Counted from the stretch's first letter, positions 2,462 to 18,893 are shown. The stretch: 64,000 bases of DNA from an uncultured bacterium (GCA_963729625.1 CAVSOU010000007.1:320001-384000), one strand, 5' to 3'. Notes: generated from the letters alone by a model not told the origin. Program-made: numbers and translations.

Positions 2462-3878
2462 CTACTTCGGACGGACCATCTTCTCCGGCCGCACCCAGCT
2501 GTCGAAGTCTTCAGGGCTAACCAGGGCAAGAGCGACGGCCGCTTCCTTCAACGTGCTGCCGTCATGATGTGCCTTCTTGGCAACCCGTGCGGCATTGTCG
2601 TATCCGATGTGCGGGTTCAGAGCAGTCACCAGCATCAGGCTGTCCGACACGTACGCAGCAATGCGCTTCGCGTCTGGCTCGATCCCCACAACACAGTGCA
2701 GGCGAAAACTCCTCGCCGAATCGGCCAGCAGTCGGACGGAATGCAAGAAGTTGTGAATGATCACTGTCTTGAATACATTCAGCTCGAAATTGCCGCTGGC
2801 TCCGCCTATATTGATCGCAACGTCGTTCCCGAGCACCTGCGCGCACACCATGGTCACGGCTTCACTCTGCGTGGGATTCACCTTCCCCGGCATGATCGAG
2901 CTTCCCGGCTCGTTCTCGGGAATGACCAGCTCTCCAATACCGCACCTCGGGCCACTGGCCAACCAGCGAATGTCGTTGGCAATCTTATTCATCGCGCATG
3001 CCAACGTCTTCAATGCGCCATGCGCTTCGACAATGGCATCATGGCTGGCCAGCGCCTCGAACTTGTTCTCGGCTGTGACAAAGGGGAGCCCGGTCAACTC
3101 GGCAATTCTGGCTGCGCTACGAGCGGCATACTCGCGGTGCGCGTTAAGGCCGGTGCCGACGGCCGTCCCTCCCAGCGCCAGCTCATAAAGATGCGGCAAG
3201 GAATGGTCGATGGCCCGAAGCGCGTGATCGAGCTGAGACGCGTATCCGGAGAATTCCTGGCCAAGGGTCAGCGGCGTCGCATCTTGCAGGTGCGTTCGAC
3301 CGATTTTCACCACGTCCTTGAACGCCTCGGCCTTATCACTCAACGCATCCCGCAACGCTGCGACCTCGGGCTTGAGCAGATGCTCAATCTGCTCGACGGC
3401 AGCAATGTGCATTGCCGTCGGAAACGTGTCGTTCGATGACTGGCTCTTGTTGACGTCGTCATTCGGATGGATGGGCTTCTTTGACCCGAGGACCCCGCCC
3501 GCGATCTCGATTGCTCGATTCGAGATCACTTCATTTGCGTTCATGTTCGTCTGGGTGCCGCTCCCCGTCTGCCACACGTGCAACGGAAAGTGTTCGTCCA
3601 GATTGCCCGCTATCACCTCGTCCGCCGCTCGTACGATCAGGTCCAGCTTCTCCTGTGACAAGAGCCCGAGATCGCCATTGGTGAGCGCTGCCGCCTTCTT
3701 GAGTATCCCCAGCGCCCAGATGACGGGGCGTGTAAATCGGTCCTCGCCAATGTCGAAATAGCGGAGGGAGCGCTGCGTTTGAGCACCCCAATATCGATCG
3801 GACTTGGACCTGGATCTCACCCATGCTGTCCGATTCAATGCGTGTCTTCTCCGCGCCAGTCTCCAAGGTCGTGGTCAT
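2462..3878 (-). pseudogene. fumC: Class II fumarate hydratase with a 1-nt frameshift near 3803-3808
   Basis: N-terminus MTTT...[13 protein letters not shown] lies in the 3531..3878 frame. [17 protein letters not shown] and [11 protein letters not shown] lie in the 2462..3838 frame. GGGAGGA RBS upstream. Confidence 0.92.
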
Positions 3879-4101: not shown

Positions 4102-5088
4102 CTAGCAGCCTATCTCGATGTCTCGTAAGACCATCAGCAGGAAGGCATGTGAGGGAGCGAACTGGCGCCCGACAGTCACCCTGAGCTCGGCAATAGCTTC
4201 GTCGGGATCTCGAGGCTCACGGTAGGGGCGGCCCGATCGAATTGCTTCATACGCGTCGGCAAGGCCGATCAGTTGAGCATGCAGCGGGATAGCGCCGCCG
4301 GAAAGGCGGTCAGGATATCCCGTGCCGTCCCATCGCTCGTGATGATGGCGGATGGCCGGGGCGAGGTGGGCAAGGCTCGCTACCCGCCGAATTATGCGAT
4401 CTCCGGCGGCCGGATGGATCCGCATGGAAGTCCACTCTCCGTCGGACAGGGCCGCGCGTTTGCGAAGCAACTGGTTGGATACACCTATCTTGCCTATGTC
4501 ATGCAGCATTGCCGCCGTCTCGAGCGCAAGCAGAGCAGGGGGTTGAAGGTCCATGGCGCCGCCAAGACTCGTGACGAGCCGCCGTACAGTGTAGCTGTGT
4601 CTGGCTGTGGCCGGCTCGTGAATTTCGAGCATTTGCATCATCGCGTCAGCCGCTTGCTGGACGCTTTCGAGACGCCCGAATGAAGCGAGCAGCAGCGCGC
4701 GCACATGCGCAGCGTACGCTCTCGCCAGCGACACGTACTCGTGCTGGCTGGCCACGTATCCATGGTCATACAACAGAACCAGCGCTCCGCGAACACCGTA
4801 CACGGGTCCAATTGGTGACGCTGCCAACCCGGGCTGGCTCACGCACTCACCGCGCTCGAGCGCGTGCAAGGCATGCGCCCGCCAAGCGCTCAGGTGACCG
4901 CGCCCAGCAGTCAGATCCGCGAGATCGCCCTCCTGGGAAGCGATCAGGACGCGTGCTCCTATCCCGGCATCCGATGCGTCATCAAGGATCGCTTGGAGAG
5001 CAGGCCGCAGCAGCGGGTCGCACTCCCAGAGCGATCTGCTTTCGTGTGTCGCCCGTCTAGCCGGCGACAGCCTCGCGACATGTGGCAT
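4102..5088 (-). CDS. HD-GYP domain phosphodiesterase with degenerate GAF-like N-terminus
   Basis: MLHDIGK, HHHERWDGTGYP, ADAY and RPYR motifs. Start placed at ATG 5088 (MPHVAR), uncertain. Confidence 0.88.
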   Translation of the reverse strand: MPHVARLSPARRATHESRSLWECDPLLRPALQAILDDASDAGIGARVLIASQEGDLADLTAGRGHLSAWRAHALHALERGECVSQPGLAASPIGPVYGVRGALVLLYDHGYVASQHEYVSLARAYAAHVRALLLASFGRLESVQQAADAMMQMLEIHEPATARHSYTVRRLVTSLGGAMDLQPPALLALETAAMLHDIGKIGVSNQLLRKRAALSDGEWTSMRIHPAAGDRIIRRVASLAHLAPAIRHHHERWDGTGYPDRLSGGAIPLHAQLIGLADAYEAIRSGRPYREPRDPDEAIAELRVTVGRQFAPSHAFLLMVLRDIEIGC

Positions 5089-5311
5089 TGGTCGAAGCCC
5101 TCCCGTAAAGACGCGGCAACAAGATGGTTGCAAACGTGCGCAGATCGCGAGCCTGGATGTCAGCCACCATCGCTGCATCCTTGGGCGAGAGACCAAACTT
5201 CAGTGCCGTGGCACGGGGGTTGCCGAGCAGGTCTGCGCCAAAAGAATGATCGACCGCAGCGGTTCCAATGAGACGCTCAAACCCTGCGTGCAATGTTGGA
5301 TGAGGAGCCAT
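5057..5311 (-). CDS. NHLP-clan (Os1348/Franean1_4349-like) microprotein, 84 aa
   Basis: FERLIGTAAVDHSFGADLLGNPRATALKFGLSPKD matches the ExLIGxAxxDxxFxxxLLxxP...xLTxEE leader pattern. GAAAGGG RBS. Confidence 0.7.
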   Translation of the reverse strand: MAPHPTLHAGFERLIGTAAVDHSFGADLLGNPRATALKFGLSPKDAAMVADIQARDLRTFATILLPRLYGRASTNATCREAVAG

Positions 5312-5339: not shown

Positions 5340-5657
5340 TTACTGGTGCGCCACGTGAAGAGGCCGGCCGGTGATGCCGCTGGCGCTGCTGAGTTTGGCG
5401 TGCAGAGGTCGCCCGGTGATGCCGCTGGCGCTGCTGAGCTTGGCGTGCAGTGGGCCGCCGGTGAGGCCGCTGGCGTTGTTGAGCTTGACGCGCAGTGGGC
5501 CGCTGGTGATGCCGCTGGCGCTGTTGAGCTTGACGTGCAGTGGGCCGCTGGTGATGCCGCTGGCGGTCGCGTGGACCTGCGAATCGGCGTTGACGGCAAC
5601 GGTACAGCCCGCGGCGAGAACGATCGCGACGGCAAGACCTCGCATTGCGCGAATCAT
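5340..5657 (-). CDS. Secreted tandem-repeat peptide precursor, 105 aa
   Basis: AGAGGAG RBS before ATG 5657. Signal peptide MIRAMRGLAVAIVLAAGCTVAVNA is followed by five ASG(I/L)T(S/G)(G/R)PL(H/R) units. Confidence 0.85.
   Translation of the reverse strand: MIRAMRGLAVAIVLAAGCTVAVNADSQVHATASGITSGPLHVKLNSASGITSGPLRVKLNNASGLTGGPLHAKLSSASGITGRPLHAKLSSASGITGRPLHVAHQ
5353..5564. repeat. Five tandem 45-bp coding repeats
   Basis: GGTGA(T/G)GCCGCTGGCG recurs at 5370, 5415, 5460, 5505 and 5550. Confidence 0.95.
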
Positions 5658-5868
5658 GGCAAGATACTCCTCTAGGACTAATGTTCCAAACCAAAGCAAA
5701 GTTCACTGCCTGAACATGGTCTGACAGACACGCCGTACCCACATCGGCTCACGTGTGACCGCCGCTAGCTGCAGCCACGGCCGGATAGCAAAACCAACCC
5801 GGAATGATACCAGGACACTACTCGTCTGTTCGCGCCCACAGACCCGCAATATCGGCGGCCAAGTGACA

Positions 5869-5874
5869 TATAAT
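5869..5874 (+). promoter_or_regulatory. Candidate sigma70 -10 element for the STAND regulator gene
   Basis: Perfect TATAAT in a GC-rich intergenic region about 110 bp upstream of 5987; no clear -35. Confidence 0.4.
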
Positions 5875-5986
5875 AGCTGTGGCCGTAACCGCGCCCTCGA
5901 AACCTGGTCTGGCCACTTGCCGCCGTAGGCAGGTTAGCACAGGGACCCTGAGCGCACCCTGAGACGGTTTCAGGAGAGAGTAGCCC

Positions 5987-8900
5987 GTGGCAGTCGGCGA
6001 CGTACCCGGCAATCCACCCTGGTCCACGGCAAAAACGCGCGTCCCCATGCCGCGAATCCTCGTGTCGCGGCCGCGGCTGATCCATCCGCTGAACCTCGCC
6101 GCGACGTCCGGACGCGTCACGCTGATCGTCGCCCCCGGCGGCTCCGGGAAGAGCTCCCTGGTGGCAGACTGGACGCGACAGGCGTCGATGCCGGTTGCAT
6201 GGTATACGGTGGATGCCGCGGACCGCGACATACGCCGGCTGGCCGCGGGACTCTGCGGCGCCATCGCCCGCGTGTTGCCGGGGGTCGCAGATGCCGCGTT
6301 TCGCGCGATCGACAGCGGAGCGACTGAAGTCGCCGCAATCGGCCTGCTTCTGGACCGGCTCGAAGATCACTCGATAACCCTCGTACTGGACGACTTCCAC
6401 CATCTTGACGGCTTACCAGAGGCCACGGCCCTGTGGGAACATTTCTTCCGCTTCAGGCCGCCGACCATGGCGCTCACCATTCTCTCGCGCACGGTGCCGA
6501 TCTTGGGCTTTGCCATGCTCGCCGCGATGGACGCCCTGCTGGGCTTGGGACGCACGGACCTGAGCTTCGCGCTTGACGAAGCAGCTGAGTTACTTGCTAA
6601 GCATGGATTGGATCCGGCGCCGGCCGCTCAGTTCGTGGCGCGCACCGACGGTTGGGCGACCGGTCTGCTCATGCTTGCGCGGTCCGCTCCGAGCGGGGTT
6701 CGCCAGCTCCACGTGAGTGTGGACACGCTCATGGATCAGCTCGGAGCCGAGCTCCTCAGCTCGTTGTCGCCCGACCTTCGCACGTTCCTGCTCGAAAGCG
6801 CGTCGCTGGGGCCTGTGACAGCCGATGAGGCAGACGAGATTATCCAACACACTCGCAGCCAGGCCCTGTTCGCGGACATATTGCAACGCGGGCTCTTCCT
6901 CACCAGGGACGGTACGACATATCGCTACCACGACCTCTTCGCCGATTACTTCATCGCAGTCCTGCGCGCCGAGGCGCCTACCAAGCTGCGTGCCATCCGC
7001 GAGCGCGCCTCCGCGTACTGGTGCGCTCAGGGAGACTTGCCTCGCGCGCTAGGCCTGCTGGCCGACGACGGCAACTGGCGGGCGCTTGCTTCCCTGCTCG
7101 AATCGCAGAGAGGTGCGCTGTGGGATCAGGCAATGTGGGGAACAGCCATAGACATGGTCGATCGCTTGCCGGAGAGCCAGCGAACGCCGCGCGTATTGGC
7201 GTTAAGTGCAGCGTGTCATGCCTCACGCGGTGAATATGCCCTCGCCCTGTCACGTGCCGACGCCGGAATGGCGGCCGCAAGAGACGAAAGCGAGTGGCTT
7301 AGCTGTGCCGTAACGCACGCAGATACGTTGCACGGCGAAGGCAGGCTCGAGGAATGTTCGCGGAGCGCCGAAGCCGCTCTTGCCGTCGCACGGCAGATTG
7401 GGCATGCTGCGGCGATAACCCGTCTCCTTAGCTTGCGGGGCCGCGCTCGGCTGGGTCTCGGTATGACGGAGGCAGGTATGGTTGACATGGCGGCGGCGCT
7501 GGACGCCCACGCTGCCGATCGAGACGTGGATGCGGAGGCCATCACGCTCTACAACCTGGCTTTGAGCCTAACCGAAGCCGGTCGCTGCACGGGATGCGAC
7601 GAGTATTTTGCACGTGCTGCGGCAATCTGGAGCCGGAAGGGTGACATGCAGCGGCTCGCGGCAGTGCTTAACCTTCGCGCAATCCATCAGTGGCAAACCG
7701 GCAACCTGCGGGCAGCCGAGGAGGATGCTCGCGCGGCGTTGTCGACACTCGGCGAGGCCGGTTCCCCACTCCGGGCCTGCGAGATCATGGCTACTTTGTG
7801 CATCGTCTGCGCCGAGAAGTCAGACATCACCGAGGCCGAGAATCTCGCTCCTAGAACCATCGAGCTGTGCGAGCGCGTCTATGCAGTTGCAGCCGCGAAT
7901 GAAGCGAGGCGGTCGCTCATTTGGTGCGCGCTGGTGCGACGCAATCGCTCCGGTACCAGGCAACTGATTGAGGACGCCCGACAACAACCCCTCACACCCA
8001 CGGACTCGGCGTTGCTTGACGTGCTCGAAGGTACGCTCGCGATCCGTGCGGGCGCTTATGCGCGAGCGGCCGACGTGCTTGGCGACGCCGCCCACAGACT
8101 CGAGGGGCTGCAGCGGCCTCAGTACGCGGCCCGTGCGCTGATACTTCGCGCCGAGGCGCTCTTGGCAGGTGGCTCGGTCAGTCGCGCCGAGGAGGCGTTG
8201 AATCACCTGGCGACGCTGGTCCTGCCATTGGGGTGCGACGGCTTCCTACGACCCGTAACGCGCATGACGCGCCAGGTCCTCGCCGAGCGGCAGATCTTGC
8301 GAAAGCTGCGGAGAGATACGCGGGATTTGCTGGAGCAGCTAGCCGCCGGGACACCAACGCTGACCGTTGTGACGCAGTCACGCAAGTCGGAAAGCGCGCC
8401 GCCGCTTCTACGTGTCTCACCATTTGGCCCGGGTAAGCTGTACTTCGACGGACGCACCATCGACGCAACCGCCTTGCCGCCGCGCGCACGTGAGGTACTA
8501 TGCTTTGTCACACACCAGAAGGGTTCGGCCGAGCGCAACACGCTCGTGGAGACCATCTGGGAGGGCGACGTGCGCGCGGCTCAGTCGCTCTGGGATGCGA
8601 GCCGGCACATTCGACGGCTGCTCGGGGAGCGGTACTGGACGACTCGCGGCGGGACGTATCGCTTGAACCTCGTGGTGAATGACGACGCGATCCAGGTTGA
8701 CGCAGACGTGGCTGCCATTCAGGGAACTGGTACCGACATCGAGAAGCTCGCCGCAGGCGAGCGTGTACTCGAGTTGATACAACCGGGCGCTTTCATGGAG
8801 TGGTGTGGAAGCCTCTGGGCAACGGCACTCCGCGCGCACTACGGTCAGCTTGCGCTATCGGCGGCCCTAGCGACCGCGGCGCTGTACGATCGGTTGGGGC

Positions 8901-9166
8901 GCGCGATGGAGGGTACCTCGACGCTGCGCCAGGCCATCGCTATCGACCCCCTTGACGAGCGTCCACGCGAAGCCCTGGTTCGCTGCCTGAGCGCCCAGGG
9001 GTTAGTGCAGCAGGCTGTCGATGAGTACCGTGCGTACCGCGCCCTGGTCCAGCAAGAGCTCGATGAAGAGCCTTCGCCGCAATTGCGGCGTTTGGTAGCG
9101 CGCCTGGGCAAGGCCATCGGGCAGGATGGCGACCCCGCGTCGGGCCCGCCTCGCCGGAGCCCATGA
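5987..9166 (+). CDS. MalT-like STAND ATPase / TPR / wHTH-BTAD (SARP-type) transcriptional regulator, 1059 aa
   Basis: SRPRL, Walker A APGGSGKS, Walker B LVLDDFH, TDGW, YRYHDLF, Ala-rich TPR-like helices, and C-terminal DPLDE...ELDEEPS BTAD signature. AGGAGAG RBS. Confidence 0.9.
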   Translation: MAVGDVPGNPPWSTAKTRVPMPRILVSRPRLIHPLNLAATSGRVTLIVAPGGSGKSSLVADWTRQASMPVAWYTVDAADRDIRRLAAGLCGAIARVLPGVADAAFRAIDSGATEVAAIGLLLDRLEDHSITLVLDDFHHLDGLPEATALWEHFFRFRPPTMALTILSRTVPILGFAMLAAMDALLGLGRTDLSFALDEAAELLAKHGLDPAPAAQFVARTDGWATGLLMLARSAPSGVRQLHVSVDTLMDQLGAELLSSLSPDLRTFLLESASLGPVTADEADEIIQHTRSQALFADILQRGLFLTRDGTTYRYHDLFADYFIAVLRAEAPTKLRAIRERASAYWCAQGDLPRALGLLADDGNWRALASLLESQRGALWDQAMWGTAIDMVDRLPESQRTPRVLALSAACHASRGEYALALSRADAGMAAARDESEWLSCAVTHADTLHGEGRLEECSRSAEAALAVARQIGHAAAITRLLSLRGRARLGLGMTEAGMVDMAAALDAHAADRDVDAEAITLYNLALSLTEAGRCTGCDEYFARAAAIWSRKGDMQRLAAVLNLRAIHQWQTGNLRAAEEDARAALSTLGEAGSPLRACEIMATLCIVCAEKSDITEAENLAPRTIELCERVYAVAAANEARRSLIWCALVRRNRSGTRQLIEDARQQPLTPTDSALLDVLEGTLAIRAGAYARAADVLGDAAHRLEGLQRPQYAARALILRAEALLAGGSVSRAEEALNHLATLVLPLGCDGFLRPVTRMTRQVLAERQILRKLRRDTRDLLEQLAAGTPTLTVVTQSRKSESAPPLLRVSPFGPGKLYFDGRTIDATALPPRAREVLCFVTHQKGSAERNTLVETIWEGDVRAAQSLWDASRHIRRLLGERYWTTRGGTYRLNLVVNDDAIQVDADVAAIQGTGTDIEKLAAGERVLELIQPGAFMEWCGSLWATALRAHYGQLALSAALATAALYDRLGRAMEGTSTLRQAIAIDPLDERPREALVRCLSAQGLVQQAVDEYRAYRALVQQELDEEPSPQLRRLVARLGKAIGQDGDPASGPPRRSP

Positions 9167-10777: not shown

Positions 10778-13435
10778 CTATCCTTCGCGGCTAAGGCGGA
10801 TGCGTGCGTCGATGGCGACGACACCACTTCCGGCCGCGCGAACGACCACCGGATTCAGATCCAACTCAACAATCTCGGGTACATCTTCCACTAGGTGCGA
10901 AATACGCAGAAGCAAGTCTCTGACAGCCGGTATGTCGGATGGCGGGGCGCCGCGGTAACCCTTGAGCAGCGTTGCGACCTTGCGGTGCGCAATCAGCTCG
11001 TCAGCGTCGACGTCCGTGAGCGGATGGATGCGGAACGACACGTCGCCGAGCACCTCGGCAGTGACTCCACCGGAGCCAAAGGCGATGAGCGGGCCGAAGA
11101 TCGGGTCGCGCACGACGCCGACCAGGCATTCTATGCCACCGGTCAGCATGGGTTGCACAAGCGCACCTTCCATCCCCTTTTCCAACCCGCGCTCGGCCAG
11201 AGCCGTGGCGATGGCGGCATACGCCTCTGATGCCGCCTCAGGCGACTCTATGTTCAGGCGCACGCCACCCACGTCGGACTTGTGGAGAATCGTGCTGGAG
11301 ACTAGCTTCACCACGACCGGCGCGCCGATCTCCCGGCAAGCGTCGGCCGCCTCCGCGGCTGATCGCACGATCTTGCCGGTTGGCAGCGAGATGCCATAGT
11401 TGGTGAGCAGCTTCTCGATCTCTACCGCCGTCAGCCAGGGCCGCTCTTCCCGCGACAGCGCTCCAGCGACGATGCTTTGCGCGACACCGCGGTCGATCTC
11501 GGCGTACTCCGGAATCGTGCCGGCAGGCCTGCGCAGCCAGGTCGCCCTGGCGGCGGCCTGGCCGAGCGCGCGGGCTGCGGACTCGGGGAATGGGTACGCA
11601 GGTATCATGGTCTTGCTCTTGCTCAGCGCCTCGGGTACCGGGCAACCGACGAAACAGGCCAGGACCGGCTTGTCCGGCTGCGGATCGCAGACCTTCACGA
11701 GCTCTGCCGCGATATCTTCCGGGCTCGTGACCATCACCGGAATGTAGAGCGCGATCACCGAGTCGATTCCAGGGTCGTCCAGCAGCGTCTTGACTACCGC
11801 GGCGTATGTAGGAGCGGGAATGGACGCGATCATATCAATTGGATTGTTGACCGACGCCTCCGGAGGCAGCATGGAACGAAGCGTCGCCTTCGTTTCGTCG
11901 CGCAGCTGCGGGACTTCAAGTCCATTTGCTTCGCAAGCGTCGGCGCAGAGGATGCCCAGACCACCGGCGTTCGTCAGAACCGCGACACGCTTGCCCTTCG
12001 GGAGCGGCTGGTTCGCGAACAGCGTCGAGATCTCGAACAACTCCTCGAGCGTCTCGGCGCGAATGACGCCGGCCTGCTTGAACAACGCGTCGACCGCGAC
12101 GTCCGATCCAGCGAGAGCGGCTGTGTGGGAGGCGGCGGCGCGGCGTCCAGAGGTGGTGCGTCCACCCTTCACGGCCAAAATCGGTTTGCGCGCGCCAACA
12201 CGTCGAGCGATGCGGGCGAATCGGCGCGGATTACCGAACGACTCGAGGTAGAGCACGATCACCTTGGTCGCCGGATCCTCCTCCCAGTATTCGATCAAGT
12301 CATTGGAAGACAGGTCAGCCTTGTTGCCGATCGAGACAAACGTTGAGACTCCCAGGCCCAGCGAGCGTGCAGTCTGCAGGATCGCGATACCGAGAGCGCC
12401 GGATTGCGATGAGATCGCGATGGAGCCACTGGGCGGCAACGTGGGGGTAAAGGTCGCGTTGATCGCCCCATGCTCGCTGCTGACCAGAACGCCAAGGCAG
12501 TTTGGTCCCACCATGCGAGCTCCGTACGTGCGGCAAAGATACAGCAATTCGTCTTGGTGCGCACGCCCTTCGGCGCCAACCTCGGCGAACCCTGCTGAAA
12601 TCACTACGAGAGCCTTCACGCCTGCTTCGAGACAATCGCGCGCTGCGTCGAGGACTCGGGATGAGGGCACGACGATAATCGCCAGATCCACAGTGTCCGT
12701 AATCGACTTGACGTTCGGAAACGCCTTGACTGAAGAGACGGAAGTGGCCAACGGGTTGACTGGATACACAGCGCCTTCATAACCGCCCTGGAGCAGGTTG
12801 CTGAACACGGCCTGGCCAATCGATCCTGGCCGTCGGGAAGCGCCGACAACCGCGATCGCCCGCGGGTGGAAGAGTGGATCGAGGGACTTGACGGCTGCCA
12901 CGTGCCTGCGTTCATCTGCGCGAGCATAATACCCTTGGTCCGTGTGCAGATCGACTTCTACCTGCACGGTGCCTTGCTCGTATACGCGCTTCTGCTTGAA
13001 GCCCAGGTCACCTAGCAAGGTGAGCATCTCGCTGTTTTGGGCGCTCACCTCGGCAATAATCCGGGTGATGCCCGCGTGGCGCGCGTCGTTCGAAAGATAC
13101 TCGAACATCACCGTACCAATACCGTTGCCCTGCTCGGGATCGTCGACTACAATCGCCATTTCAGCCGCGGTCGGGTCGACGAGGCGGTTGAACGATGCAA
13201 CTGCAATCACGCGGTTCTCGCGTTCGGCGACCAGAGCGTGCCCTGCGACGACGCTCTGAACTAGATCGTCACTGATGCGAACGCCGGCGGAGTGAAATCG
13301 TTGAGCTCGGCTCTCTGGGGACATACGATTGAGCAGGGCGGCGACGGCAGCATTGTCAGCCGGCAGGAACTCGCGAATCAGCGCCTGACTCCCGTCGCGG
13401 AGCAGGGCGAATTCGCCGGCGGGCATGGTTATCAT
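10778..13435 (-). CDS. GNAT N-acetyltransferase fused to ADP-forming acyl-CoA synthetase (Pat-like)
   Basis: N-terminal GNAT (RFHS, QGNGIG), CoA-binding IAVVGAS, GPNCLG, SQSG, ASHT, and C-terminal ATP-grasp HKSDVGGV and ELDLNP. Confidence 0.92.
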   Translation of the reverse strand: MITMPAGEFALLRDGSQALIREFLPADNAAVAALLNRMSPESRAQRFHSAGVRISDDLVQSVVAGHALVAERENRVIAVASFNRLVDPTAAEMAIVVDDPEQGNGIGTVMFEYLSNDARHAGITRIIAEVSAQNSEMLTLLGDLGFKQKRVYEQGTVQVEVDLHTDQGYYARADERRHVAAVKSLDPLFHPRAIAVVGASRRPGSIGQAVFSNLLQGGYEGAVYPVNPLATSVSSVKAFPNVKSITDTVDLAIIVVPSSRVLDAARDCLEAGVKALVVISAGFAEVGAEGRAHQDELLYLCRTYGARMVGPNCLGVLVSSEHGAINATFTPTLPPSGSIAISSQSGALGIAILQTARSLGLGVSTFVSIGNKADLSSNDLIEYWEEDPATKVIVLYLESFGNPRRFARIARRVGARKPILAVKGGRTTSGRRAAASHTAALAGSDVAVDALFKQAGVIRAETLEELFEISTLFANQPLPKGKRVAVLTNAGGLGILCADACEANGLEVPQLRDETKATLRSMLPPEASVNNPIDMIASIPAPTYAAVVKTLLDDPGIDSVIALYIPVMVTSPEDIAAELVKVCDPQPDKPVLACFVGCPVPEALSKSKTMIPAYPFPESAARALGQAAARATWLRRPAGTIPEYAEIDRGVAQSIVAGALSREERPWLTAVEIEKLLTNYGISLPTGKIVRSAAEAADACREIGAPVVVKLVSSTILHKSDVGGVRLNIESPEAASEAYAAIATALAERGLEKGMEGALVQPMLTGGIECLVGVVRDPIFGPLIAFGSGGVTAEVLGDVSFRIHPLTDVDADELIAHRKVATLLKGYRGAPPSDIPAVRDLLLRISHLVEDVPEIVELDLNPVVVRAAGSGVVAIDARIRLSREG

Positions 13436-14965: not shown

Positions 14966-15619
14966 TCACTCGTGACCAAGGGCGCGTTGCTCCGCCAGGA
15001 ACGCAGCCGCCTGAGCACGCCGCTCCATACCCAGCTTGCTGAGAATGGTGCTCACGTAGTTCTTCACCGTCTTCTCGGACAAGTAGACGATAGTGGCGAT
15101 CTCACGATTCGTTTTCCCCTCCGCGATCAAGCCAAGAATGCGCCTCTCTTGTTCGGAGAGCTCAGACAGCTTGTCCTTGTGTCCACCACTTGCCATCTCG
15201 CGCATCCTCGTGAGCACCTTACCCATCACGCTCGGGTCTAGAAGAGATTCACCGCGCGCGACTGCCTCGATGGCACTTACAAGCTCGCGCCCTCGCGTCT
15301 GCTTGAGCAGATAGCCGGCCGCACCCGCGATGATCGCGGCGTAGACGGCCTCGTCGTCTGCGTAGCTCGTGAGCATGAGGACCTGGATCTCGGGATGGTC
15401 GGCCCGAATTTCCCTGCATGCCTCGATGCCCGTCCCGTCCGGCAAGCGCACGTCCATGACGATAACGTTTGGCAGTTCGCGCCCCGCTGCCTCGACGGCC
15501 TCCGCGACCGTCGCTGCCTCGGCAACCACGCGAATGTTCTCTCTCCGCTCCAGCAGCGACTTCAACCCTTGCCGCACGACCTCGTGATCGTCGACAAGCA
15601 TCACACGGATGTCAGCCAC
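14966..15619 (-). CDS. NarL/LuxR response regulator, DosR/DevR-like
   Basis: VMLVDDHEVVRQGL, DVRLPDG, MLTSYADDEA and LSEKTVKNYVS. GTG start after GGAGG overlaps the kinase stop. Confidence 0.92.
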   Translation of the reverse strand: MADIRVMLVDDHEVVRQGLKSLLERRENIRVVAEAATVAEAVEAAGRELPNVIVMDVRLPDGTGIEACREIRADHPEIQVLMLTSYADDEAVYAAIIAGAAGYLLKQTRGRELVSAIEAVARGESLLDPSVMGKVLTRMREMASGGHKDKLSELSEQERRILGLIAEGKTNREIATIVYLSEKTVKNYVSTILSKLGMERRAQAAAFLAEQRALGHE

Positions 15620-17027
15620 GGCCCTCCTCCAGTCCACCCACGGCCACGGGCACGCGTGCGCTTACCGTGGCGCCTCCGCCCGGCTCTGACTGGATCGTCA
15701 GGCAACCGCCAAGAGCGAGCGCGCGGTCGCTCATGTTGCGTAACCCCTGATGCTCAGGGGCATGCGCTGCGTTTGTGTCGAAGCCTGCACCGTTGTCCGT
15801 GATCTTCAGCTCAACGAATCCAGCCGCTCCTTGTAGTGTAATCCAGATGCACCCAGCGCGCGCGTGGCGCACAACGTTTGTCACTGCCTCGCGCGCGATC
15901 TGGAGCAGCTCATCCGCTGCTGCCTGGGGAAGACGGGCCATGGCCGGTCCACGAACGTCGAGCTCAGTCTCGAGCAGAGAATGAGCGTGCGTCCGTGCAA
16001 GCAGCGCAGCTAATGCCTCCGGAAGTGAATCGGCGTCATCCTCCGCCTTGAGGCCGAGCACATAGCTGCGCAACTCCTTGATGACCTGTTCGAGCCGCTC
16101 AATCGCGCCGGAAATGCGCGCTCGAGCATCGCCTGGTTTCGCCTCCAGATCGTCGTGCGCACATTCCAGCTCAAGGTTGACACCGAAGATCGCCTGGATC
16201 ACGCTGTCGTGCAAGTCCATGCGAATGCGTTCGCGTTCTGACGCCACCGCCAGCATACGGATACGCTCGGACATGCGCGCGTGCTCGATTACCACGGCCG
16301 CATAGCTTGCCAGCATGCTCAGCAGGCCCTCATCGTCTTCCGCGAACTCCGCCGCCCCAACTTTGTCTGCAAGATAGAGGTTGCCGACAATGTTGCCACC
16401 CTGAGAAACCGGCACGCCCAGCAACGTGCGCATTTCCGGATGGCCGGCGGGGAAACCGGAACGTCGCGGGTCAGTCGACAAATCGGCGATTCGGACCGGC
16501 GCACCTTGATGCAGCATGACGCCCAGGACACCATGGCCCGACGGGGGAGCCCCTATGCTTGTCCGATCCTCCCGAGAGATGCCGGAGGTGTAGAAGGCGT
16601 CGATCTCGCTGCCGATGCCCACTACCCCAAGCGCGGCGTACTTGGCGCCAATAAGGTCGCGTGCCAGATCGACCAGACGCTGCAATGTCTCATCCGTGTT
16701 TCGGGCAGCAGCGATTGCCAGCGAGGCCTGATGCAGTGCCTCCATCTGCGCGCGCAGCCGTCGCTCGGTGGCAAGACGCTGCTCGAGCTCAGCATACTGG
16801 CTCGCCAGATTTCGATCCTGACGGGCGATGATCCGGAACATGCCGGTCGAAAAACTCACCACGCCTACAGCGGTCACCCCGATCGCGAGAGCGCCCGTGG
16901 CGTAGCTTGGCCAATCCGAAAGCAGCCTGGTGATGAAGAGGTAGAAAAGACAAAGCAAGATGAGCGGCACGACAATGCTGAACAAGCGCAGACCTCTGCG
17001 CCGACTGCGCAATTCATTCCCATGCAT
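15612..17027 (-). CDS. Membrane-anchored GAF sensor histidine kinase (HisKA_3), DosS-like
   Basis: Two N-terminal TM segments, GFPAGHPEMRTLLGVP, ERERIRMDLHD, EAVTNVVRH and DNGAGF. Confidence 0.9.
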   Translation of the reverse strand: MHGNELRSRRRGLRLFSIVVPLILLCLFYLFITRLLSDWPSYATGALAIGVTAVGVVSFSTGMFRIIARQDRNLASQYAELEQRLATERRLRAQMEALHQASLAIAAARNTDETLQRLVDLARDLIGAKYAALGVVGIGSEIDAFYTSGISREDRTSIGAPPSGHGVLGVMLHQGAPVRIADLSTDPRRSGFPAGHPEMRTLLGVPVSQGGNIVGNLYLADKVGAAEFAEDDEGLLSMLASYAAVVIEHARMSERIRMLAVASERERIRMDLHDSVIQAIFGVNLELECAHDDLEAKPGDARARISGAIERLEQVIKELRSYVLGLKAEDDADSLPEALAALLARTHAHSLLETELDVRGPAMARLPQAAADELLQIAREAVTNVVRHARAGCIWITLQGAAGFVELKITDNGAGFDTNAAHAPEHQGLRNMSDRALALGGCLTIQSEPGGGATVSARVPVAVGGLEEGRG

Positions 17028-17249
17028 TGCAGCGTAGTGCCCTCGTTGCCGCACACCCACCAACTCGTGATCTTACGCTAGCAACGAGTGAGCGTAATGC
17101 CGTAGGGCCATGGGTCATAACATATGCGGCACTTTGGCCCTGACAGACATACGAGACGCCGGGAAACGGCAATGCCCTGACGTTTCGGCATCACTCAGGC
17201 GCAGTTGGTGCTGCACCGGGGTCCCCTGAATGCAAGGTTCGGGCGAACG

Positions 17250-18893
17250 CTACTCACCGAACGGCACAAACGCCGTGACGGTCGTACCGGCGTCGATCTT
17301 GCTCTGTAACGAAAGCGTTCCGCCTACCTCGTCGGTGCGCACCCGCATATTGCGGATGCCACGGTGCTCGTAGCCCCGAGCGGCCCTTGGATCGAAGCCT
17401 CGGCCGTCGTCCTGCACCACGAGCGTCGCGCCCGCTCCCTCATAGGTCAAGCGGACTTCGACGGTCGACGCGGCCGCGTACTTCACTACATTGGAGAGCG
17501 CCTCACGTGCTATCAGCATCAGGGTGTTGGCCTGGTCGTCGGGAAACTCATATGGCTGCCCTTCCAGGATGAAGCGCGCTCGAAGACCGCATTGTCCATC
17601 GCTGTCGCGAGTGATAGCCGAGATACCGTCGGCCAAGAGGTGGCCGTCGAGAGGGCGCGCGCGGAGGCCCTGAATGTAGGTCCGAATATCGGTAATCGTG
17701 CCTGAAAGCCTGTCCGTCACTCCAGTCAACCGATCGCGAAGCGGTTGCACCTCAACGTCCTCGGAAATGTCTTCGAGTTGCAGAGTTGCCGCGTAGATGT
17801 CCTGAATGATACCGTCATGCAGATCTCGACCGATACGCTCTCGCTCGTGCAGCAATGTCAGCTCACCCAGCTGTGTGTACAGCCGCGCGTTTTCTATCGC
17901 GATACCCGCGTGAGCTGCCAGCAGCTCGATCTGCCGTTGATCCTCTTCCAGGAATTCTGGGCCGCCGATCTTGTCGGTCAAGTAGAGATCGCCGACGACC
18001 TGGCCGTGTACGCGGATCGGGACACCCAACAAGCTTGTCATGTTTGGGTGTTGCGGTGGAAAGCCCACGCGACGGGGATCCTTGCTAATGTTGGCAACGC
18101 GTAATGAACGGCCGAGGCGAATCAGCACGCCCAGAAGTCCGTGGCCGCGGGGAACGCTGCCGATCTTCTCGCGTTCATCCTGCGTTATGCCGGTGGTGAT
18201 GAACTCGCTCAGGTAGCCGTCAGACCCGACGACTCCCAGGGCTCCATACTGCGCACCCGCAATACTGGCGGCAGCCGACACGATGCGCTGCAAAACCTGA
18301 TCGAGTGAGAGTTCCGAGGCCAGGCCCTTGCTGGCGTCGTCGAGCGCGAGCATGCGCTCACGCATAGCCTTGTCCTGTTGATGCACGAGCGCATTCGCCA
18401 GCCCCTGACCGGCGAGCTTGCCGAGCGCGCGAAGTGACTCGGTCTCCGAGGAAGATGGTCGATTCGCATAAAGCAGCACCAACGCCGCGACCAGCATGTC
18501 GTCGCCGTAGAGCGCGAGGACGCGAATCGTGCCTGGACGTCGCTTTCCTCTTAGCAACGGCGGGTCCAGGTCGGGATTCGAACCAGTATCAAATTCCAGG
18601 AGATCCGCAGTCTCCGCAGCCCTCTTCGCTACTGCTTGAATGCTCTCGTAGCCTTGGCGCTGCAGCCATCGCTCGTCGAGATCTCCGCTTGTGCCGGCGC
18701 CCGCTGGCAAAAAGTCACCTGCGTCGCGCTCGTACAGGAGGACCAGAGAGGCGTCTGCACCGCCAATCACCATCGCATGGGATGCAAGCCGGCCAACGAG
18801 GGTTGTTACATCGCGTGTCGCACACAGATCCTCCGCGATGTGCCACGCGTGAAACGTCATGCCAGCCCGGCTGTCAATATCTTGTGTCCGCAC
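17250..18893 (-). CDS. Cytoplasmic dual-GAF sensor histidine kinase (HisKA_3), DosS/DosT-like
   Basis: GFPPQHPNMTSLLGVP, ERERIGRDLHD, EALSNVVKY and DDGRGF; start uncertain. Confidence 0.9.
   Translation of the reverse strand: MRTQDIDSRAGMTFHAWHIAEDLCATRDVTTLVGRLASHAMVIGGADASLVLLYERDAGDFLPAGAGTSGDLDERWLQRQGYESIQAVAKRAAETADLLEFDTGSNPDLDPPLLRGKRRPGTIRVLALYGDDMLVAALVLLYANRPSSSETESLRALGKLAGQGLANALVHQQDKAMRERMLALDDASKGLASELSLDQVLQRIVSAAASIAGAQYGALGVVGSDGYLSEFITTGITQDEREKIGSVPRGHGLLGVLIRLGRSLRVANISKDPRRVGFPPQHPNMTSLLGVPIRVHGQVVGDLYLTDKIGGPEFLEEDQRQIELLAAHAGIAIENARLYTQLGELTLLHERERIGRDLHDGIIQDIYAATLQLEDISEDVEVQPLRDRLTGVTDRLSGTITDIRTYIQGLRARPLDGHLLADGISAITRDSDGQCGLRARFILEGQPYEFPDDQANTLMLIAREALSNVVKYAAASTVEVRLTYEGAGATLVVQDDGRGFDPRAARGYEHRGIRNMRVRTDEVGGTLSLQSKIDAGTTVTAFVPFGE

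Follow-up and report, generated by a model that had tools for sequence, protein, structure and literature searches.

A putative multi-core peptide pheromone precursor encoded divergently from a MalT-like STAND regulator in a Chloroflexota lineage

The window, the whole stretch of 64,000 nucleotides from an uncultured bacterium that was analysed here (GCA_963729625.1 CAVSOU010000007.1:320001-384000), carries a compact gene cassette that is bounded by fumarase and unrelated genes. The cassette includes a divergently transcribed MalT-like STAND/TPR/SARP regulator, a small peptide gene, an Os1348-like protein and an HD-GYP protein, the peptide gene being the first gene of a tight minus-strand operon. 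No protease, modifying enzyme or transporter/exporter was found in or beside the cassette. The peptide gene, P0001 (5340..5657, minus strand), is a 105-codon ORF starting from ATG and encodes a precursor of 105 aa, consisting of a signal peptide and five modules of 15 aa. A Shine-Dalgarno-like sequence, AGAGGAG (5667..5673, minus strand), is located 9 nt 5' of the ATG; the same motif is found in the orthologous cassette of G001, another genome of the genus, and GGAG-type motifs precede the start in the precursor ORFs of other loci. The regulator gene and the peptide operon diverge from an intergenic region (5658..5986, assigned to neither strand) that presumably contains the promoters for both directions. 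A search of this region for a conserved operator or for SARP-type direct repeats gave nothing usable and no conserved repeat. A consensus promoter-like site was noted at 4026-3999, outside the intergenic region.

The signal peptide of P0001 (5568..5657, minus strand; aa 1-30) begins with MIRAMR, continues into a hydrophobic stretch and ends in SQVHA, the whole N-terminus being basic and hydrophobic (MIRAMRGLAVAIVLAAGCTVAVNADSQVHA). It is followed by five tandem 45-nt units (5343..5564, minus strand; aa 32-105), as defined by the Tandem Repeats Finder array and the unit table, with unit boundaries at 5564-5520, 5519-5475, 5474-5430, 5429-5385 and 5384-5343 on the minus strand. The units read ASGITSGPLHVKLNS / ASGITSGPLRVKLNN / ASGLTGGPLHAKLSS / ASGITGRPLHAKLSS / ASGITGRPLHVAHQ. 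Each module is composed of an 8-aa core and a 7-aa spacer, H[VA]KL[NS][SN]A, and the cores are SGITSGPL (twice), SGLTGGPL (once) and SGITGRPL (twice). Tandem Repeats Finder reported the array at 5362-5565 with a 45-bp period, 4.5 copies, 88% matches, no indels and a score of 301, and a tandem array of this quality is far beyond chance. The five repeat units described in the preliminary description are thus present, with the translation exactly as quoted there, and the mature protein of 75 aa is indeed nearly all repeat, as had been claimed. The proposed small-X-Ala site in front of each core is borne out only in part: Ala is present at position -1 in all five cases, but a small residue at -3 in only three (ATA, SSA and SSA versus NSA and NNA).

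Downstream of P0001, the Os1348-like small protein of the NHLP clan, P0002 (5057..5311, minus strand; 84 aa, ending in AVAG), starts 28 nt past the precursor stop. P0002 scored 36.1 bits (E 4.9e-9) against NF038399, below the cut-off of 40 bits, and 20.8 bits against PF14407 (Frankia_peptide), for which the cut-off is 48. A profile built from cassette members, A2, matched PDB 6lk7 (E 6e-5), an 85-aa protein annotated as 'nitrile hydratase alpha chain', which we take to be the Os1348 entry; it also matched the N-terminal part of the nitrile hydratase alpha subunit and one NHLP leader. These matches indicate that P0002 is related to the Os1348 family, while it is no member of the curated NF038399. 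The next gene (4102..5196, minus strand) encodes the HD-GYP protein; the ORF extends from TTG at 5196, and translation probably begins at the ATG at 5088, which overlaps the end of the P0002 gene. The HD_5 domain was detected with 113.6 bits against a cut-off of 27.2, and the motifs HDIGK and HHERWDGTGYP are present in the translation, while the N-terminal region of about 150 aa gave no family match. On the basis of the HD_5 domain and of both the HD and the GYP motif, this neighbour is classified as a putative HD-GYP phosphodiesterase.

The divergent regulator (5987..9166, plus strand; 1059 aa) starts 330 nt from the precursor start and is composed of a MalT-like NOD (aa 26-376), a TPR-type sensor (about 380-800) and a SARP output with wHTH and BTAD (805-1041). 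The NOD matched MalT (PDB 8bob, E 1e-30) and contains the P-loop GGSGKS, and the SARP domain matched AfsR (PDB 8hvr, E 0.002), with the BTAD scoring 49.9 bits against a cut-off of 22.1. With these domain matches the protein is assigned to the MalT-like STAND regulators with a SARP output. Pfam TPR_12 stayed below the threshold (28.2 versus a cut-off of 30.1). A model of the sensor (aa 380-800; AF2, alignment of 22 rows) was obtained with pLDDT 87.1 and pTM 0.80, showing about 20 helices arranged in hairpin repeats. Foldseek comparison of this model returned peptide-binding TPR superhelices (LGN, E 5e-9), domain III of MalT (1hz4, TM 0.61/0.68) and the Bacillus quorum sensor NprR (5dbk, TM 0.60/0.69). 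TPR folds being generic, the predicted fold speaks for the plausibility of such a sensor and not for its identity.

Several lines of evidence indicate that P0001 is a real coding gene and part of a real family. GC3 reaches 0.83 in the precursor frame, compared with 0.65 and 0.57 in the two alternative frames. For the signal-peptide codons of ten related variants, pN was 0.032 and pS was 0.271 (pN/pS 0.12), and since pN is far below pS the precursor frame is translated and under constraint. The differences between the units of P0001 amount to 10, 14 and 12 at codon positions 1, 2 and 3, and because of this even distribution the units show no obvious purifying selection relative to each other. 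A single-sequence AF2 model of P0001 reached pLDDT 55.5, with no residue attaining 70, and displayed weak periodic strands, one short strand per unit; this confidence is too low for an argument in either direction. Sequencing runs yielded nothing on expression or copy-number variation: their contigs were fragmentary, with no more than 0.21 of the sampled words recovered, and a single metatranscriptome contig spans just 5036-5189, outside the peptide gene.

Direct searches for relatives of the precursor returned few sequences. No family for P0001 was found in Pfam and NCBIfam (best E 0.05), nothing was detected by a word-based search of 5.8 billion proteins or by a pattern scan of genome contigs, the genome of the window contains no paralogue, and a collection of 15 billion proteins does not include the exact 105-aa sequence. 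When 1.84 billion representatives were searched exhaustively by HMMER with a profile, 19 matches at E<=0.001 were obtained, ten of which were inspected, the remaining nine being the longest (472-1651 aa). Three of the ten inspected were true relatives, none of them named, and seven were unrelated repeat proteins. The relatives are P0004 with five units of ASASGxSSGPLHVVL, P0005 with three units of ADGASGAPYGPLKVT and P0017 with four units of AGGTNGGPIFKKST. Relatives of the cassette were recovered by synteny, with P0002 instead of the precursor as the query. All four other genomes of the genus (G001 to G004) contain the cassette, and each of them encodes, at the position of the precursor, a small secreted protein made of repeats: the orthologue of G001 contains seven units, SAGGANGGPLAIRLS, i.e. 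SAGGANGGPL(AIRLS/AHSLN), that of G002 two units of GGVPA(I/T)(S/G)GPL, that of G003 three units of SGNTSGGPL with 2-residue spacers, and that of G004 four units of SVNTGSGPL. Second and third cassettes in the same four genomes encode other peptides (three copies of ADGSGTQPF, three copies of ADGLGAQPF, or single-copy forms), and the cassette of a genome from another family encodes three copies of SASGGPGTV. A scan of metagenome contigs added 38 loci. In 36 of these, the Os1348-like gene is directly preceded by a small ORF with a signal peptide, the exceptions being L072, whose contig starts too late, and L088, without a convincing ORF; the STAND regulator was found, in the same divergent arrangement, in 35 (the three misses are contig ends), and the HD-GYP gene in 37. 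The metagenome precursors represent 26 distinct sequences, of which 19 have 2-5 core copies and the other 7 have one core each, close to the C-terminus. The precursor belongs to a so far unnamed family of a Chloroflexota lineage.

The organization of the precursor was compared among ten close but distinct metagenome loci (L051-L057, L060, L065 and L066), after removal of the exact duplicates L058, L059 and L067. The signal peptide is 0.95 identical among them, and all cores are preceded by the retained motifs RQAG and THxT(V/I)QAG, while identity falls to 0.1-0.4 over the 4-6 residues that follow these motifs. Nine core types occur in the ten loci: GGLYQD, GIIYQD, GGILE, GGITEY, GTIVEL, GTIYEF, GNIFEL, GGHYEFG and GGVIDFGKV. 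Across the whole family the core is 6-9 aa long, present in 1-7 copies and hypervariable, and the signal peptide and the spacers are conserved. Arrays free of spacers also exist (three copies of GGLYQD in L053 and three copies of TVVGPGPL in L077), and five distinct precursors (L053, L054, L056, L060 and L066) end exactly at the last core residue, so that the core is recognized as the repeated entity of the precursor. Units of 6 to 16 residues occur across the family, and this variation together with the absence of spacers is hard to reconcile with a fixed structural repeat. When the family register is applied to the window, the unit is divided as SA/SGITSGPL/HVKLNSA, and the predicted peptides released from P0001 are SGITSGPL (two copies), SGLTGGPL and SGITGRPL (two copies).

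The preliminary description had proposed a comparison of copy number and core sequence across related genomes, and it had named better conservation of the linker than of the core as an argument against its own reading. The comparison gave hypervariable cores in 1-7 copies behind a conserved signal peptide and between conserved spacers; the linker is indeed the better conserved part in the homologs, but the interpretation is not refuted, because diversifying pheromones and multi-core precursors both show conserved flanks around a hypervariable core. The central proposal, an exported precursor of several variants of a signalling peptide, gained comparative support from the conserved flanks, the 1-7 hypervariable cores, the spacer-free arrays, the core-terminated precursors and the co-varying sensor described below.

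Along the ten aligned cassettes, DNA identity is 0.85-0.96 almost throughout, hypervariability being confined to the peptide core (0.44-0.51) and to the STAND codons from about 400 to 600 (0.65-0.79). Other dips in identity occur at the locus ends and at a length difference inside the HD-GYP gene, the latter being a short insertion in L051 and L054 that is accompanied by a broken frame in L054. The Os1348-like and HD-GYP proteins are nearly invariant among the ten variants and do not track the core. In the regulator, residues of about 400-600 (window numbering) show an aa identity of 0.68-0.81 with pN 0.10-0.20 and pS 0.48-0.65, as against 0.93-1.00, 0.00-0.03 and 0.13-0.25 for residues 120-319 and 600-719. 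The raised pS in this sensor segment (7184..7786, plus strand; aa 400-599 in the window) indicates that allelic lineages of old age have been maintained while the sequence around them recombined. Given the TPR-type superhelix of the model, the hypervariable segment corresponds to the N-terminal half of the TPR-type sensor.

The sensor segment co-varies with the core. The two loci with GGLYQD are 96% identical in the segment versus only 92% in the rest of the regulator, and the GIIYQD locus is 92% identical to both of them in the segment; conversely, L053 and L055 share 98% identity in the rest of the regulator versus 68% in the segment, and L051 and L056 share 99% versus 77%. In Mantel tests on the ten variants, the core distance was correlated with the segment distance (r 0.58, p 0.0005) and not with the distance in the rest of the regulator (r -0.10, p 0.74). 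The segment tree contained the clades GGLYQD, GGLYQD and GIIYQD (support 1.0), GNIFEL, GTIVEL, GTIYEF and GGHYEFG (support 0.92), and GGITEY and GGVIDFGKV (support 1.0), whereas the tree of the rest of the regulator paired the loci differently and not by core type. This sharp co-variation was obtained in a single clade of ten variants, with core limits set by the analyst, and the contigs, which carry similar names, probably come from related samples, so that the variants are not independent. Among 11 other locus pairs, nine had a segment that exceeded the rest of the regulator in divergence by 0-7 points; in the remaining two it was 2-4 points less divergent, including L081 and L082, whose cores differ. 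In four full-length sequences of the genus the dip was broad (residues 480-640), and the SARP region showed a dip as well. Outside the ten-variant clade, sequence comparison was uninformative or neutral with respect to co-variation. Taken together, the assignment of the STAND regulator as the receptor of the peptides is a well-motivated hypothesis.

The signal peptide of P0001 offers two candidate processing sites, Cys18 in a lipobox-like LAAGC and VHA at residues 28-30, both conserved in the subfamily. The lipobox-like Cys is kept in all subfamily members examined (G000-G004, P0004, P0005 and L074), in the contexts LAAGC, FSASC, TTGC, VVSC, AVSC and GTGC, and the xHA site, about 11 residues past this Cys, is equally conserved. 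A lipobox follows the pattern [LVI][ASTVI][GAS]C and closes a short hydrophobic region. P0001 has A-A-G-C with Leu at -4, and the canonical residue at -3 is found only in G003 and L074; the residues following the subfamily Cys remain hydrophobic. The wider precursor family is without a lipobox-type Cys, as exemplified by MRLTARRIVAIAALALTTFAATHA and P0017, and in L021 and L085-L087 a Cys is present but preceded by Leu at -1, giving no fit to the lipobox. Since the hydrophobic residues after the Cys and the conserved xHA about 11 residues further on suit a long SPase I signal, we lean towards processing of P0001 by SPase I. The product of the window's subfamily might nevertheless stay lipid-anchored via the lipobox-like Cys.

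We propose the following model for the function of the cassette. The pro-peptide would be exported by the Sec pathway and its signal peptide removed, whereupon extracellular or membrane proteases would cut after the Ala preceding each core, and cutting or trimming behind the core would release several short peptides. The released peptides would accumulate and then re-enter the cell; the genome of the window contains 22 matches to SBP_bac_5 (Opp/Dpp-type), making oligopeptide uptake feasible and nothing beyond that. Once imported, the peptides would bind the product of the divergent gene, the MalT-like STAND/SARP regulator, at its TPR sensor, and the peptide-bound regulator would activate transcription, probably of its own operon encoding the peptide, the Os1348-like protein and the HD-GYP protein. 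Activation of this operon would couple cell-cell signalling to c-di-GMP turnover. Within this scheme, we infer the cleavage sites, the re-import, the direct binding, the autoinduction and the c-di-GMP output. As a whole, the model of a multi-core pheromone precursor with peptides sensed by the STAND regulator is, in our judgement, probably correct, though by no wide measure. The preliminary description had also suggested that the three core variants of the window were caught during a specificity switch, and such a switch would be compatible with the duplication-divergence model cited in PMC11343458.

Other explanations of the locus were weighed against this model. It is very improbable that the gene has no functional product and is only a hypervariable, promoter-proximal DNA tandem repeat that stays open in several frames by chance. 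All six frames are in fact open across the repeat, the differences between units show no third-position bias, and the exact protein is absent from the large collection searched; against this, the signal peptide is under purifying selection, the start, the SD and the frame are kept across genomes with differing repeat units, the units are always whole codons, and GC3 is high in the frame. An intact surface protein, either a lipoprotein anchored at Cys18 or a secreted structural repeat such as a small beta-solenoid or fibre with repeats evolving in concert, would account for the lipobox-like Cys in all examined members of the subfamily and for the short strand in each unit of the AF2 model. We consider this unlikely, given that a lipobox-type Cys is missing from the wider family, that the unit length is variable and spacers are sometimes absent, and that 7 of the 26 distinct metagenome precursors carry a single core near the C-terminus; furthermore, the region around the Cys and xHA suits a long SPase I signal, and the confidence of the AF2 model is low.

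Somewhat less unlikely, but still improbable, is an exported RiPP-like or bacteriocin-like multi-core product, serving antagonism or kin discrimination rather than being a signal read by the STAND protein, with the variable segment of the regulator as a case of linked diversification, for instance for specificity of immunity or of regulation. Conserved flanks with hypervariable multi-copy cores are the pattern of cyanobactins too, and the next gene belongs to the NHLP/nitrile-hydratase-like clan, which is used by RiPP leaders. In Pseudomonas sp. Os17, antibiotic activity is influenced by the namesake Os1348 (PMC7726476). The cassette, however, has no modifying enzyme, dedicated protease or exporter in or next to it, the precursor begins with a Sec-type signal peptide and not with a cytoplasmic leader, and the Os1348-like protein is invariant with respect to the core, while recognition is the simplest explanation for a cytoplasmic TPR sensor whose sequence follows that of the core.

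The pheromone model, if true, extends the logic of pheromones with cytoplasmic receptors to Chloroflexota, an abundant and mostly uncultured phylum of soil and sediment. To our knowledge, such receptors for peptide pheromones have hardly been described outside Bacillota and their phages, and the ligands so far reported for STAND regulators are small metabolites or phage proteins; MalT and GutR, for their part, are induced by small sugars or polyols. It would also follow that STAND regulators can read encoded peptides, that a natural series of receptors and peptides, with at least nine core types on a near-identical background, is available for studies on the evolution of specificity, and that the cassette gives a regulatory context to Os1348-like and NHLP-clan proteins. 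The literature outside subscription journals yielded neither a STAND regulator reading an encoded peptide nor peptide quorum sensing in Chloroflexota, and the accessible part of the RRNPP_Detector paper does not mention Chloroflexi. We would give about even chances to the broader proposition that the cassette represents a class of peptide quorum sensing that is new and lies outside Bacillota, in which a Chloroflexota STAND NTPase composed of MalT-like NOD, TPR sensor and SARP output acts as the cytoplasmic receptor of encoded, Sec-exported peptides, with many pherotypes, up to seven cores per precursor, and an operon output including a c-di-GMP phosphodiesterase and a coreless, leader-like NHLP-clan protein. 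The model is testable at each step with synthetic peptides and one purified domain.

Among the closest known parallels to the proposed system are the RRNPPA systems (Rap-Phr, NprR-NprX, PlcR-PapR and AimR-AimP), in which the gene for a Sec-exported propeptide adjoins that for a TPR receptor located in the cytoplasm; a signal of 5-10 aa is matured, often from the C-terminus, and propeptides can carry 1-4 identical or diverged copies (PMC11343458 and PMC9765709). The mature RRNPPA peptide is re-imported by Opp and bound by the TPR domain; for a comparable route in the window, indirect support comes from the core length of 6-9 aa, the 22 SBP_bac_5 matches and the co-variation of sensor and core. 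As in these systems, the small ORF of the window with its Sec signal is encoded beside a candidate TPR receptor, and the fold of the sensor matches NprR. The RRNPPA receptors, however, consist of an HTH or the Rap three-helix bundle plus TPR in about 300-450 aa, whereas the candidate receptor here is a 1059-aa STAND NTPase with a C-terminal SARP; furthermore, the host belongs to Chloroflexota and not to Bacillota, up to seven copies are found, and the operon adds an Os1348-like and an HD-GYP protein. The system of the window is therefore no member of RRNPPA, and the receptor shares only the TPR fold with that group.

With respect to Os1348, an all-helical homodimer linked to antibiotic activity in Pseudomonas sp. 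Os17, P0002 is a protein of the NHLP clan with the same size of 84-85 aa, and profile A2 matches 6lk7; unlike Os1348, it scores below the family cut-off and is without neighbours of the GNAT, HEXXH-peptidase and SagB types (Os1348 data from PMC7726476). The co-variation has a further precedent among systems with membrane receptors, as the two islands recall comQXP and agrBDC but, unlike the variable parts of those loci, have about 1.2 kb of conserved DNA for the NOD between them. The Bacillus comQXP and staphylococcal agrBDC loci show co-variation of the pheromone with a receptor segment, both of them hypervariable, the flanks being conserved and recombining and pS being raised in the variable part; the receptors are membrane histidine kinases, and the peptides are modified post-translationally. 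The cyanobactin precursor PatE has conserved recognition flanks around hypervariable multi-copy cores, and the family of the window likewise shows conserved flanks with repeated hypervariable cores, but it carries a Sec signal instead of a leader peptide and has no maturation enzymes or proteases in the cassette. The regulator itself is like MalT and AfsR, with a NOD that matches MalT, a SARP domain that matches AfsR and a sensor that resembles MalT domain III, while the order of its domains is NOD-TPR-SARP, unlike the order SARP-NOD-TPR of AfsR.

In some genomes of the genus the cassette occurs two or three times, and the peptide differs from one cassette to another. The loci concerned are L004, L020 and L022 in G001, L021 in G002, L019 in G003 and L018 in G004. 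Across the cassettes of G001, the peptides comprise seven copies of AGGANGGPL, one single-copy form and three copies of ADGLGAQPF. The genome of the window carries a single cassette only. Multiple cassettes within one genome would represent parallel signalling channels.

The composition of the cassette also varies. In one paralogous type, the place of HD-GYP is taken by a gene whose product, judged by eye from the translations, resembles a response-regulator receiver domain (L018, 1734..2276, plus strand; L019, 941..1480, minus strand). A simpler layout was observed at L028-L031, in genomes of another Chloroflexota family, with a regulator consisting of SARP/BTAD only, followed on the same strand by a small secreted peptide, which ends C-terminally in one GGxGGPxxx motif, and then by the Os1348-like gene. 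This arrangement may be the unamplified ancestral form. In the metagenome variant L054, the HD-GYP reading frame is broken at about 3000-3100 while the remaining cassette is intact; an extra GAR lies just upstream of the break, and the same GAR is present in the related locus L051, of which the HD-GYP frame is intact.

Elsewhere in the window, a tandem pair of GAF-HisKA_3 histidine kinases precedes a LuxR-type response regulator (14966..18893, minus strand). An 885-residue protein (10778..13435, minus strand), in which a GNAT acetyltransferase is fused to CoA-binding, succinyl-CoA-ligase-like and ATP-grasp_5 domains, resembles a Pat-like protein acetyltransferase.

The junction between the Os1348-like and HD-GYP genes (5036-5189) matched a 154-nt bioreactor metatranscriptome contig with one mismatch, a match too slight to claim transcription. 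The Os1348-like proteins of the window (5057..5311, minus strand) and of all cassette orthologues in the alignment terminate in AVAG, RLAG or VAGS. Since these C-termini fall at about the cleavage position of an NHLP leader, the Os1348-like proteins look, from their sequences, like leader peptides devoid of a core.
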